Source of the DNA: Escherichia coli
GTDB taxonomy: Bacteria > Pseudomonadota > Gammaproteobacteria > Enterobacterales > Enterobacteriaceae
Reading direction: 5' to 3' (one strand)
DNA length: 64,000 nt
Assembly (NCBI RefSeq): GCF_029227855.1
Contig: NZ_CP074357.1
Shown in pieces: positions 58,401 through 61,400 of the stretch (its first letter is position 1; each line of letters starts with the position of its first letter). The position numbers are program-made.

Positions 58401-61400
58401 GCTATCGAAGGAAAGCCGGATGCGGTTGAAACTATAGCAAATGCTTACGTGAAGCTCGGTCGCCATCGAGAAGGTGTCGTGGGCTTTGCTCAGTGCTACC
58501 TGTTCGACGCGCAGGACATCGTGACGTTCGGCGTCACCTATCTTGAGAAGCATTTCGGAACCACTCCGATCGTGCCTCCGCACGAGGCCGTCGAGCGCTC
58601 TTGCGAGCCTTCAGGTTAGAGGCCGTCGACAATGATAATCTGGATCAACGGACCTTTCGGCGCCGGAAAGACGACGCTCGCTAAGCGGCTGCGCGATCGG
58701 CGTTCCAAATCGCTGATCTTTGACCCCGAGGAAATCGGGTTCGTGGTGAAAGAAACGGTCCCCATGCCAGCGAGCGGAGACTATCAGGATCTCCCCTTGT
58801 GGAGGGGACTTACGATCGCGGCGGTCAGGGAGATTCGAAGGAATTACTCGCAGGACATCATCATCCCAATGACGCTCGTGCACCCGGACTATCTGACTGA
58901 GATACTCGACGGGGTAAGGCGGATCGACGATCAGCTGCTGCACATCTTTCTGACGCTCAACGAGGACCTATTGCGTCACCGGATCGCGAACCAGACCATG
59001 CATCCTGACCCGAATCGAAATGCGGAGATTCGAGAGTGGCGATTAGCGAATGTCGCCCGATGCTTGGCCGCAAGGGAACGGCTTCCATGCACAACCCGTG
59101 TTCTCGATAGTGGTGCACACACCAGCGATGAACTCGCAGCGATGGTGCTCGACGGAATCGATGGGCGCACCTGATCGCCTTCGACGCCTGCGCAAAGCGT
59201 AGCGCGAGGGTGGCGGGCTCACGACCAAACGCCCAGAGGTCGATCATCGCAGGGATGTTTGGCTTTGTGGTGCGGACGACGGGACTCGAACCCGTACTCT
59301 CACAGAGAAGCAGATTTTCGTACCACCTCGACTTTCGCCGCCGTCTGATGACGTTCGTGGTCTGGACTGTCCCTTCGCCATTGCCCGAAGGCTTTAGGCG
59401 CCGCCCGTCCAGTCTCTACACCTTCCCCCGAAGGGGCTTGGCTCGGGATTGGCTTAGGGTATTGCCCGTTAGCGTTCCCCGACTTTGAGCGGTTCTACTC
59501 CGCGGATTTCCCCGCGGGCACTCCAATTTTAAAGTCTGCTGCGTCTACCGATTTCGCCACGTCCGCCTTTTTTCGCCGTTCCTAGCGCTCGTGCGATGCA
59601 CCTATGTTGCACCTAGCGCCGAATCGTTCTTCGTCATCCTGAAAAACCACGTCTCCTAAAGCCTTGCATAGCTTATCTTTTCTCCACCACGAACTTTTTT
59701 GTGGGATGGTAGAAAAAAAGACTTTTTAAGTCCGCTGGCTTGCCAGGCCTTGTTAGCTTGTACGGTCATGGTTATCGGGTAAAGAATATTGACGGCATCG
59801 CTGGTGTCGGTGGCTGAAAAGCCGGCTCCCATCAGGGCAATAGCCATTTCAGATGCAGGCGTACAGGGCAATGGTCAACAGCTACAGCCTGTCTGACGAT
59901 TCCGGCGTCATGGCTGCGGCGGCTATCACGCATTTTTTGTTCGGTCAGGCGGTGTTTTCGTACCTCAATGGTTGGAGCGTGTTGATCGGACCTGGTACAG
60001 GTTTGGACAGCACGGGCTGCAAATACGCAAGGGATTTAATGGGCCTGGTGGCGTTCACGGCTTTTATCGTGACGTTTCTGTTCAGGGGCTACTCATAATC
60101 TCGTGGCTCGGCGGTTCCCGGCACACCATGACAGTAAGGAAGGACCCTGTGTCTCAACTCTCCCAGCTTCGAAGCCCCGCCGCCGTGCAGGCTGCCATCG
60201 ATGAGTTCGTGCAACTGGGCCGCACGAAATTCCTGGCGCGCCACGGCTACGGCAAGTCCCGCGACTTCCTGGTACGTGATCCGAAGACCGGCACCGATTG
60301 CGATTCCAAGGCCATCGCCGGTGTGGCCTTCGGCAAGCAATTTCCCGAGCAGGGCCCGCTCACTGCTGACAGCTTCTCCGGTGGCGAGGCGACCGTCGTT
60401 CCGGCGCTGACGCGGCTCGGGTTTCGCATCATTCGCATCGGCGAAGACTGGTCCGAAGAAGAGGTCCTGGCCACGGTCGAAGACTATTTCGACATGCTGC
60501 GTGCCGAGGCGGCTGGGGAGCCGTACAACAAGTCCGAGCACAACCAGGCACTGCGCCAACTGCTGAACGGTCGCAGCAAGTCTTCAGTCGAGCTCAAGCA
60601 CCAGAACATTAGCGCCGTACTCGATGCCCTGGGCCTGCCCTATATCAACGGCTACAAGCCACGCGGCAACAGCCAACTGCTGCTGCGTAAATCCGTACAC
60701 GCCTACGTTCTGGAACATCAGCAGACGGTCGGCGCTCTTGTCGATGCCCTGGAGGAGGTAAAACTTCCGGGTGACAAAACCTACCGAGCGGCTTTGGTAG
60801 AACCACCCGCCCGTGAAGTGCTTGTGCGTACCCCGGCATCTCTACGGCAACGCCTACCGCGAAAGTTCGATTATGCCGCTCGCGATGAAGCCAACCGCAA
60901 GCTGGGCCGGGCAGGGGAGCAGTGGGTGATTGGCTACGAACAGCAACGCCTGACCGAGCTCGGCCACCCAGAGCTTTTTCAGCGGCTGGATTGGGTGTCC
61001 GACACCCAGGGAGACGGTGCGGGGTTCGACATCCTGTCGTTCGAAGAGGACGCCCATGAGCGCTTCATCGAGGTGAAAACCACCAATGGCGGGGTAGGCT
61101 CGTCTTTCTTGGTCAGCCACAACGAACTCGAATTCTCCAAGGAGGCGGGCGATCAATTCCATCTGTATCGCGTGTTCCAGTTTCGGGACGGTCCGCGCCT
61201 GTTCACGCTACCCGGCGACCTCAGCCAACATGTGCATCTCAAGCCGACGGGCACTGTTGCAAATAGTCGGTGGTGATAAACTTATCATCCCCTTTTGCTG
61301 ATGGAGCTGCACATGAACCCATTCAAAGGCCGGCATTTTCAGCGTGACATCATTCTGTGGGCCGTACGCTGGTACTGCAAATACGGCATCAGTTACCGTG

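Follow-up and report, generated by a model that had tools for sequence, protein, structure and literature searches.

A clipped NOV_C/DUF3883 nuclease gene between two IS26 copies in Escherichia coli, probably a passenger from a Stutzerimonas-like defence island

Introduction

NOV_C (DUF3883) domains serve in several defence proteins. That of HmaA is a nickase needed for defence against T4, and in YenY4I, which depends on modified cytosine, DUF3883 is the catalytic domain and is active. DUF3883 enzymes often adjoin DUF2075 NTPases, and the pairing of a nuclease with an NTPase is a common design in defence. A further family with this domain, PDC-S36, is a defence candidate proposed by guilt-by-embedding (Payne et al., 2024, bioRxiv), its members having been detected within BREX, DISARM or type I restriction-modification (RM) systems; a literature search found no paper that names PDC-S36.

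Here we describe a gene of this kind in a 64,000-nt stretch of Escherichia coli DNA from contig NZ_CP074357.1 (hereafter the window). The gene is already catalogued: it appears as “orf1182” in the published aacC2-tmrB-orf192-orf228-orf1182-ISCfr1 module, its product (WP_000080860.1) carries the RefSeq annotation ‘DUF3883 domain-containing protein’, and it has been described under these names in more than 1,300 plasmids. In our reading, the copy in the window is the clipped remnant of a three-domain nuclease that probably came from a Stutzerimonas-like defence island and is now most likely carried as inert passenger DNA.

The IS26-bounded segment and the clipped reading frame

A preliminary description had taken the gene for passenger DNA, and it does lie between two directly oriented copies of IS26 (Table 1). 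Both copies are 820 bp long with tnp on the plus strand, differ from each other at 3 nt and have intact 14-bp inverted repeats. A passenger flanked by two such copies is the IS26-bounded pattern of a pseudo-compound transposon or translocatable unit. The passenger holds an IS10 end, aac(3)-II, tmrB, a tRNA-Leu gene with an intron, orf192, a small-gene remnant and the nuclease remnant.

Table 1. Positions in the window of the nuclease gene remnant, its predicted domains and active-site codons, and the adjoining features.
Feature	Position	Strand
Left IS26 copy (Tnp26 G184N variant)	56675..57494	+
Whole passenger between the IS26 copies	57495..61249	.
Remnant (3' three quarters; ‘orf228’) of 100-aa membrane-protein gene	59872..60098	+
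In-frame upstream extension with the previously proposed ATG; probably the ribosome-binding site AAGGAAGGA of the GTG start, not coding	60128..60148	+
Nuclease gene remnant (orf1182 / WP_000080860.1), codons 1-367 of 378	60149..61249	+
ScoMcrA_N ‘head’-like domain, residues 1-97	60149..60439	+
Helical middle domain with homeodomain-like three-helix HTH, residues 98-205	60440..60763	+
NOV_C/DUF3883 PD-(D/E)xK nuclease domain, residues 240-367, last 11 residues gone	60866..61249	+
E257 codon (helix alpha-1 acidic residue), invariant in 81/81 homologues	60917..60919	+
Predicted catalytic D294 codon (D of GFDILS), invariant in 81/81 homologues	61028..61030	+
E308-V-K310 codons (ExK motif), E and K invariant in 81/81 homologues	61070..61078	+
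IS26-encoded replacement tail GTVANSRW and stop, in place of native DYRASFRSLVG	61250..61276	+
Right IS26 (canonical Tnp26), clips the nuclease gene	61250..62069	+

The open reading frame opens at ATG 60128 on the plus strand, has an in-frame GTG at 60149 and, past 61249, continues into IS26, the first bases of which (GGCACTGTTGCAAA) stand at 61250, before it reaches a stop codon at 61274-61276. The start first proposed, ATG 60128, is probably 21 nt too far upstream, because the 378-aa RefSeq protein WP_000080860.1 begins, as do all native homologues, at the codon equivalent to GTG 60149. This GTG, which is preceded by the Shine-Dalgarno-like stretch AAGGAAGGA, is likely to be the true start. 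Homologues of the reading frame were found down to an E-value of 1e-246, with 2,919 proteins at E ≤ 1e-5, which is far above chance.

IS26 had been said to remove only the extreme C-terminus, and exactly 11 codons are missing relative to full-length homologues. When it is aligned with intact copies and native homologues, the window copy has its final 11 residues swapped for an IS26-derived tail (Table 1). The lost native stretch holds a conserved [YF]-R-A motif, of which the aromatic residue is kept in 79 of 81 homologues and the alanine in 69. A crude consensus scan found no sigma-70-like promoter upstream of the nuclease gene, a weak negative, and the gene may be transcribed by read-through from upstream.

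Domain architecture and predicted active site

The full-length protein of 378 aa comprises three domains, namely a homologue of the ScoMcrA “head”, a homeodomain-like helix-turn-helix (HTH) and a NOV_C/DUF3883 PD-(D/E)xK nuclease. The C-terminal D...E-x-K motif seen in the preliminary description is real and intact, with the peptide GFDILSFEEDAHERFIEVKTT present in the reading frame. The Pfam NOV_C profile (PF13020, DUF3883) matched residues 263-360 with 77.1 bits against a cut-off of 22.1, covering profile positions 1-90 of 91, and the domain has the alpha-beta-beta-beta-alpha-beta core fold. The AF2 model had a pLDDT of 93. E257, D294, E308 and K310 sit at canonical PD-(D/E)xK positions, are all present in the window copy, and are invariant across 81 homologues with identity down to 34%. 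By analogy with characterised relatives, the domain would carry out metal-dependent nicking or cleavage of DNA. A search of NCBIfam with the nuclease protein gave no match.

The N-terminal domain, for which no function had been assigned, proved to be homologous to the head of ScoMcrA, itself of unknown role. Precomputed annotations and a profile-based PDB search identified it (PF26345), and in the latter the domain profile matched the ScoMcrA head at E 8e-22; with a single sequence as query the ScoMcrA match was marginal (E 0.14). The middle domain has five invariant residues (W101, Y113, K150, N153 and Q176), and its HTH probably binds DNA. A search with a profile of this middle domain found nothing, and a profile of the core returned from the PDB only a match to the DASH complex, which was judged spurious.

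PADLOC matched the protein to PDC-S36 over about residues 98-378 (E 1.5e-103, 344 bits). The match spans profile positions 4-273 of 280, and the uncovered profile end is the counterpart of the stretch clipped by IS26. Matches to the nuclease domains of PD-T4-1 and TmtA were also obtained. The family is modular, its core occurring alone at ~280 aa or behind varied N-termini. Jointly, the middle and nuclease domains make up the conserved unit classed by PADLOC as the single-gene candidate PDC-S36.

Native loci and the helicase neighbour

The reading of the gene as a defence nuclease agrees both with this family assignment and with the placing of native copies in defence islands. Genomic context was surveyed in ~20 distinct native loci, without statistical control. 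Zorya II was adjacent, with ZorA2/ZorE2 matched at E 1e-145 or below, as were Tiamat (TmtA, E 0), Gabija, type I RM and Druantia-like systems, and integrases and tRNA-Pro islands also adjoined the homologues. Native homologues have the defence neighbours by which PDC-S36 was recognised, whereas the window copy sits in a resistance module.

The usual native neighbour within these islands is a tandem SF2+SF1 helicase of ~1,700 aa directly upstream of the nuclease. It holds this position in at least 7 of the ~20 loci (the loci named being L002-L010, L016 and L024) and lies within 4 kb of the nuclease in 9. Because the gene usually stands directly downstream of this helicase in a defence island, its native role was probably that of an anti-phage or anti-mobile-DNA nuclease, acting alone or helped by the neighbouring helicase. 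No helicase remnant was found upstream of the gene or anywhere in the 64,000-nt window.

The closest contender is that the nuclease is only the effector subunit of a two-gene system, a tandem RecQ/DpdF-like and UvrD-like helicase followed by the nuclease, with neither activity nor targeting when alone. Every plasmid copy, intact or clipped, would then be dead cargo, having no activity without the helicase. In L002-L004 the helicase stop and nuclease start codons are 1 nt apart, which together with the frequent upstream position speaks for such a partnership, as does the presence in other loci of different adjacent helicases (a YjiV-like DEAD helicase, a ResIII helicase, SLFN-g3/DUF2075 and helicase IV/UvrD); the nuclease-NTPase and DUF3883-DUF2075 pairings described above point the same way. 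However, the partnership remains uncertain because the association is not obligatory: the nuclease gene stands alone in L034, at a tRNA-Pro/pheST-ihfA hotspot, and has quite different neighbours elsewhere. L033 is likewise listed as alone, and it, L012, L015 and L017 have no adjacent helicase of the tandem type. Ranked by sequence identity, close homologues that have the helicase are intermixed with those that lack it, PADLOC treats the core as a single-gene candidate, and defence islands are rich in helicases anyway. We consider a strict two-gene dependence a tentative alternative, appreciably less probable than the preferred reading.

Type IV and other readings

The architecture had also been called type IV-like, and the homology of the N-terminal domain to the head of ScoMcrA bears out the likeness. 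Dependence on DNA modification is not supported in the same way: no modification-reading domain (SBD, SRA, PUA/EVE, DUF3427 or similar) was found in the protein, the middle domain is a homeodomain-like HTH rather than an SBD, SRA or PUA domain, and the catalytic domain is a PD-(D/E)xK nuclease without the HNH domain of ScoMcrA. “Type IV-like” is therefore a matter of resemblance. A true type IV enzyme, in which the ScoMcrA-like head, the helical domain or both would read a modification (phosphorothioate or modified cytosine) and the PD-(D/E)xK domain would cut nearby, is unlikely, although several observations are consistent with it. ScoMcrA, the source of the head homology, is phosphorothioate-dependent; PADLOC gave a weak mREase_IV match at residues 18-102; the modification-dependent YenY4I and McaZI have DUF3883 as their catalytic domain; and type IV families typically join a constant nuclease core to N-termini that vary. 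A cognate methyltransferase is also not consistently adjacent in the native loci, a single C5 methyltransferase lying nearby in L033.

It is rather improbable that intact orf1182, present in ~730 plasmids and many E. coli chromosomes, is an autonomous, active anti-phage or anti-plasmid nuclease, or natively the effector of an undescribed two-gene system. Such a system may centre on the ~1,700-aa tandem SF2+SF1 helicase, which is covered by no PADLOC model. Under either form of an active nuclease, the window copy would still be a clipped remnant.

A nuclease of recombination, repair or mobile-element maintenance in integrative elements, such as a structure-specific resolvase-like enzyme or a toxin, is very unlikely. 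In structure the nuclease domain is matched best by Holliday-junction resolvases (Hjc), RecU and a homing endonuclease, and integrases, transposases and ISCfr1 lie nearby in several loci, but the fold alone does not discriminate, because the PD-(D/E)xK core is shared by all of these enzymes. The immediate neighbours are overwhelmingly recognised defence genes, the family was detected within BREX, DISARM or type I RM systems, and the gene is not tied to any one integrase or element type.

Probable origin and capture, and observed spread

The nearest chromosomal DNA to the window copy was found in Stutzerimonas (S. nitrititolerans and S. stutzeri; L008/L009), at 93% identity from 59872 to 61248. 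Similarity to these nearest genomes sets in sharply at 59872, part-way through a small gene of which they have the whole, so that the breakpoint with unrelated DNA falls at 59871/59872. In the closest relatives, this gene for a 100-aa membrane protein sits between the helicase and the nuclease. An ISCfr1-like insertion sequence, 95% identical, occupies the same site in S. kunmingensis.

The intron-containing tRNA reported next to the nuclease region is genuine: it is a tRNA-Leu(UAA) gene on the minus strand with a 213-nt group I intron, which ARAGORN missed directly and detected after in-silico splicing. Among the native homologues, no tRNA gene was found next to the closest relatives, and only tRNA-Pro genes were found elsewhere, in loci of the P. 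putida group. The gene, the tRNA and aac(3)-II/tmrB had been thought to be one fragment of a donor island, and this is contradicted by the break at 59872 and by the native upstream neighbour, which is the 1,700-aa helicase and not a tRNA. The passenger is therefore a mosaic: the window retains no helicase, and the junction with the tRNA side falls at a breakpoint by which the small gene is cut.

On the preferred reading, that of a clipped passenger, the gene would have originated in the defence island of a Stutzerimonas-like pseudomonad, been captured into the aacC2-tmrB module together with the downstream ISCfr1, and afterwards been carried as non-selected passenger DNA. Identical DNA is present in ~1,350 plasmids and in 608 of 5,426 complete E. 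coli genomes. The intact 3' end is kept in ~730 plasmids, and the IS26 variant, without ISCfr1 and the last 11 codons, occurs in roughly a third of the carrying plasmids. The window copy is most likely inert, because it has no helicase partner and no recognisable promoter and has lost the conserved C-terminal motif, although the loss of 11 terminal residues may leave activity.

For the window itself the result carries little weight, beyond the use of the clipped gene in dating and typing the IS26-bounded aac(3)-II/tmrB segment as the variant without ISCfr1 and the 11 final codons. More widely, it offers a functional label and a likely source for a gene that over a thousand resistance plasmids carry under no other name than “DUF3883” or “orf1182”: the label is the PDC-S36 candidate family with a ScoMcrA head, HTH and NOV_C domain, and the source probably a Stutzerimonas-like defence island from which the gene was captured with ISCfr1. 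Should the intact allele be an autonomous, active nuclease, a Pseudomonas/Stutzerimonas defence gene would be spreading together with aac(3)-II among clinical Enterobacteriaceae, where it would affect which phages or plasmids these hosts accept, and resistance plasmids would carry a cryptic restriction function.

Comparison with known systems

Among the described families, the 280-position PDC-S36 model is covered nearly completely by residues 105-374 of the orf1182 protein, with the same homeodomain-like middle domain and NOV_C nuclease, and native homologues of orf1182 likewise lie in or beside other defence systems. The PDC-S36 model lacks the ScoMcrA-head N-terminal domain that the orf1182 protein has, while in the window copy the final ~7 positions of the model are missing and the gene lies outside any defence island.

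HmaA (Hma), the DUF3427-DUF3883 modification-dependent enzymes YenY4I and McaZI, PD-T4-1 and Tiamat TmtA share with the orf1182 protein the NOV_C PD-(D/E)xK domain with its D...ExK motif, and many of them have a helicase or NTPase as partner or fused domain. The likeness is confined to the ~110-aa nuclease domain, and the N-terminal and middle domains, size and partners are unlike. ScoMcrA, the type IV phosphorothioate-dependent restriction endonuclease of Streptomyces coelicolor (PDB 5ZMM), shares the N-terminal head, which is followed there by SBD, SRA and HNH domains and in the orf1182 protein by the homeodomain-like HTH and PD-(D/E)xK domains, so that the modification-reading domains of ScoMcrA are absent from the latter.

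The orf1182 reference module (pEl1573, JX101693; pCTX-M3, NC_004464) is 100% identical in DNA to the window over 59180-61249. In the reference module the intact 378-aa gene is followed by ISCfr1, whereas in the window IS26 has deleted ISCfr1 and the last 11 codons of the gene.

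Gene boundaries and truncation

The gene clipped by IS26 is a remnant of orf1182, of which the window retains codons 1-367 of 378 (60149-61249, plus strand). Its reading frame is open from an ATG at 60128 to 61249, beyond which it runs eight codons further inside IS26, whose left inverted repeat (GGCACTGTTGCAAA) begins at 61250. The extent given to this frame in the preliminary description stands but its start probably does not, as the 378-aa RefSeq protein WP_000080860.1 and every native homologue start at the position of an in-frame GTG at 60149, preceded by AAGGAAGGA; the proposed ATG would thus lie 21 nt too early. 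Alignment with intact copies and native homologues confirmed the loss of the extreme C-terminus: exactly 11 terminal residues (DYRASFRSLVG) are missing, including an aromatic position conserved in 79 of 81 homologues and an alanine conserved in 69 of them, and GTVANSRW followed by a stop stands in their place. This copy is also without its native upstream genes, and a promoter scan upstream of it recognised none, although this is weak evidence. With the upstream genes, a recognisable promoter and the terminal residues all lost, the window copy is probably inactive cargo.

Coordinates of features in the window and in compared loci carrying the nuclease gene (L handles)
Feature	Coordinates	Strand	Remarks
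D codon of D…ExK	61028-61030	+	Window sequence
E-V-K codons of D…ExK	61070-61078	+	Window sequence
tRNA-Leu(UAA) gene	59269-59566	minus	213-nt group I intron between U34 and A35
tRNA-Leu parts	5' exon 59566-59532; intron 59531-59319; 3' exon 59318-59269	minus	
IS10 outer-end remnant	57495-57723		Directly after IS26
Tandem helicase (1,697-1,729 aa)	L002 4810-9999; L005 4763-9907; L008 4476-9566; others		Directly upstream of nuclease
Four-gene nuclease block	L028/L029 10001-15353; L035 9001-14338		Variovorax and metagenome contig
ISCfr1 (IS1182 family)	L001 6144-7490; L002 11143-12492		Downstream of nuclease gene, GGCC site

Domains and active site

A search of both halves of the protein bore out the proposed PD-(D/E)xK-like C-terminal domain, with Pfam placing NOV_C (PF13020, formerly DUF3883, PD-(D/E)xK clan) at residues 263-360 (77 bits; cut-off 22). 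The window does encode the D…ExK peptide quoted earlier, and E257, D294, E308 and K310 do not vary in any of the 81 homologues and are placed as PD-(D/E)xK topology demands. Structural matches of this domain are likewise PD-(D/E)xK enzymes: I-Ssp6803I (8.0), Hjc (7.9/7.7/7.4), NhoI (6.8) and RecU (6.7), together with VRR-NUC, SwaI and MspI. The N-terminal domain, earlier described as having no known function, proved homologous to the ScoMcrA “head” (residues 6-94), matched at E 8e-22 by a profile of 24 N-terminal domains, and is PF26345 ScoMcrA_N in precomputed Pfam annotation; the ScoMcrA structure paper describes this head as a small domain on a flexible attachment, whose function is not known. 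The protein is thus laid out as a head (1-97), a helical domain with an HTH (98-205), a linker and the nuclease (240-378). A search of 1.8 billion representative proteins found the 280-aa core (98-378) both by itself and following a range of other N-terminal domains, a modularity seen in restriction-type enzymes.

Origin and spread of the passenger segment

Two IS26 copies in direct orientation flank the segment at 57495-61249, in agreement with its description as passenger DNA. Full-length homologues at 64-89% identity, from Stutzerimonas, Pseudomonas and Variovorax, are all ∼378-380 aa. By DNA, the nearest chromosomes are those of S. nitrititolerans GL14 and S. stutzeri V81 (93% identity, window 59872 to 61248), where a 1,697-1,720-aa helicase, a 100-aa predicted membrane-protein gene and the nuclease gene follow in that order. 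Similarity ends at 59871/59872, inside the membrane-protein gene (L008 9647-9949, and L009); the window’s “orf228” is what is left of this gene, its 3′ three quarters, with a fortuitous ATG, and no helicase trace was found in the whole window. The idea that nuclease and tRNA came as a single donor-island fragment fails at this junction: its tRNA side has no counterpart in any compared native locus and no tRNA genes were found near the closest relatives, so the segment is a mosaic.

On plasmids, a longer form of the module carries the intact nuclease gene followed by ISCfr1. In S. kunmingensis a 95% identical IS occupies the corresponding GGCC site directly after the nuclease homologue, and in the sister loci L003, L008 and L009 this site is empty, without ISCfr1. 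This agrees with a Stutzerimonas-like origin of the nuclease gene and of the IS, and suggests that ISCfr1 is target site-specific with Stutzerimonas as its reservoir.

DNA identical to 59180-61249 was present in 1,350 PLSDB plasmids (Escherichia, Klebsiella, Salmonella, Acinetobacter and others) and 608 of 5,426 complete E. coli genomes. Searched with a probe that crosses the truncation point, 729 plasmids had the intact 3′ end with ISCfr1, while roughly a third of the matching plasmids end exactly at the window’s IS26 junction. The perfect identity of the plasmid copies to one another reflects recent spread, not selection. The gene is already catalogued in RefSeq, the literature, and PADLOC and Pfam families, and is ordinary in this window; the literature describing the published unit, aacC2-tmrB-orf192-orf228-orf1182-ISCfr1, states nothing on the function of orf1182.

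Elsewhere in the segment, the tRNA-Leu intron scored 36.8 bits for Rfam Intron_gpI, under the gathering score of 50, and ARAGORN needed the intron spliced out in silico to recognise tRNA-Leu(taa). The insertion site is that of the classical intron in cyanobacterial/plastid tRNA-Leu. The IS10 remnant holds a full RNA-OUT match (57609-57678, 98.8 bits) that faces the start codon of aac(3)-II (57759), so the IS10 promoter pOUT may drive this gene. The IS26 copies (56675-57494 and 61250-62069) differ from each other at 3 nt; the right is canonical, and the left encodes N at residue 184 of Tnp26, the G184N variant, for which higher activity has been reported. An IntI1-like integrase ORF (61908-62867, minus strand) has its 3' end in the right-hand IS26 and is followed by an aadA-like ORF at about 62797-63807; a class 1 integron appears to have been cut by the same IS26 copy that clips the nuclease.

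Native contexts and proposed function

Across ∼20 distinct native loci, the nuclease gene is a recurrent defence-island resident. The defence-gene check placed Zorya type II immediately upstream (L012), Tiamat TmtA immediately downstream (L017), a type I RM system with a PLD-like gene upstream (L015) and Gabija-type genes with an integrase on the flanks (L005). A large helicase adjoins the gene very often, but not always. The tandem helicase, which combines DpdF/PsyrT-like SF2 (residues about 281-680) and UvrD/GajB-like SF1 (about 1090-1430) modules behind an unassigned N-terminus, lies directly upstream in L002-L010, L016 and L024 and farther upstream in L018 and L019. Since no PADLOC model covers its full length, it may be a defence component that has yet to be described. 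At least five distinct loci (L011, L013, L019, L025, L026, L027; about 7400-9850) have divergent genes for a MazG-like pyrophosphatase and an SLFN-g3/DUF2075 helicase upstream; in L019 this pair separates the nuclease from a tandem helicase that is disrupted. Variovorax has a YjiT/YjiV-like giant helicase upstream and an HIT-HNH-helicase IV/UvrD block downstream, the latter shared with L035. The resulting conserved four-gene block comprises the ScoMcrA_N-NOV_C nuclease, an HIT-family protein, an HNH-like protein weakly similar to PtuB, and a zinc-ribbon helicase of the helicase IV/UvrD type.

In the most likely reading, the intact protein would bind DNA via its HTH-containing middle domain, the NOV_C active site would cut or nick the bound DNA, and the whole would be an innate anti-phage or anti-mobile-DNA nuclease, autonomous or coupled to an adjacent helicase. 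An obligate two-gene helicase-nuclease system is a tentative alternative; the helicase-nuclease gap is 1 nt in L002-L004, and at the tRNA-Pro/pheST-ihfA hotspot the gene adjoins a C5 methyltransferase in L033 and stands essentially alone in L034. A true modification-dependent type IV enzyme, to which a resemblance was first noted, is unlikely: the head is shared with ScoMcrA, and the type IV REase PADLOC model gives a weak match (residues 18-102), but no reader domain was found and nothing observed points to dependence on modification. A recombination, repair or mobile-element nuclease is the least probable role, and we consider it improbable. The preliminary description was right as description and largely so as interpretation, save on two points: the dependence on modification, and the origin of nuclease and tRNA in one donor-island piece. 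An active defence system may still be formed by the intact allele or by the helicase and nuclease paired in their native loci.

Comparison with known systems

Published relatives of the nuclease domain include HmaA, whose NOV_C is a DNA nickase needed for T4 defence, and YenY4I (modified-cytosine-dependent) and the McaZI group, whose catalytic domain is DUF3883 and which often adjoin DUF2075 NTPases. The likeness to PD-T4-1, classed as a PD-(D/E)xK nuclease-NTPase system, and to Tiamat TmtA is confined to the nuclease domain, the only part their PADLOC models match. PDC-S36, a PADLOC single-gene candidate, matches near end-to-end (profile positions 4-273 of 280, E 1.5e-103) over residues 105-374, which excludes the head; PDC systems are explicitly untested candidates from “guilt-by-embedding”, and a literature search found no mention of PDC-S36. 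With ScoMcrA the orf1182 protein shares the head domain, whereas the SBD and SRA domains that do the modification reading belong to ScoMcrA.
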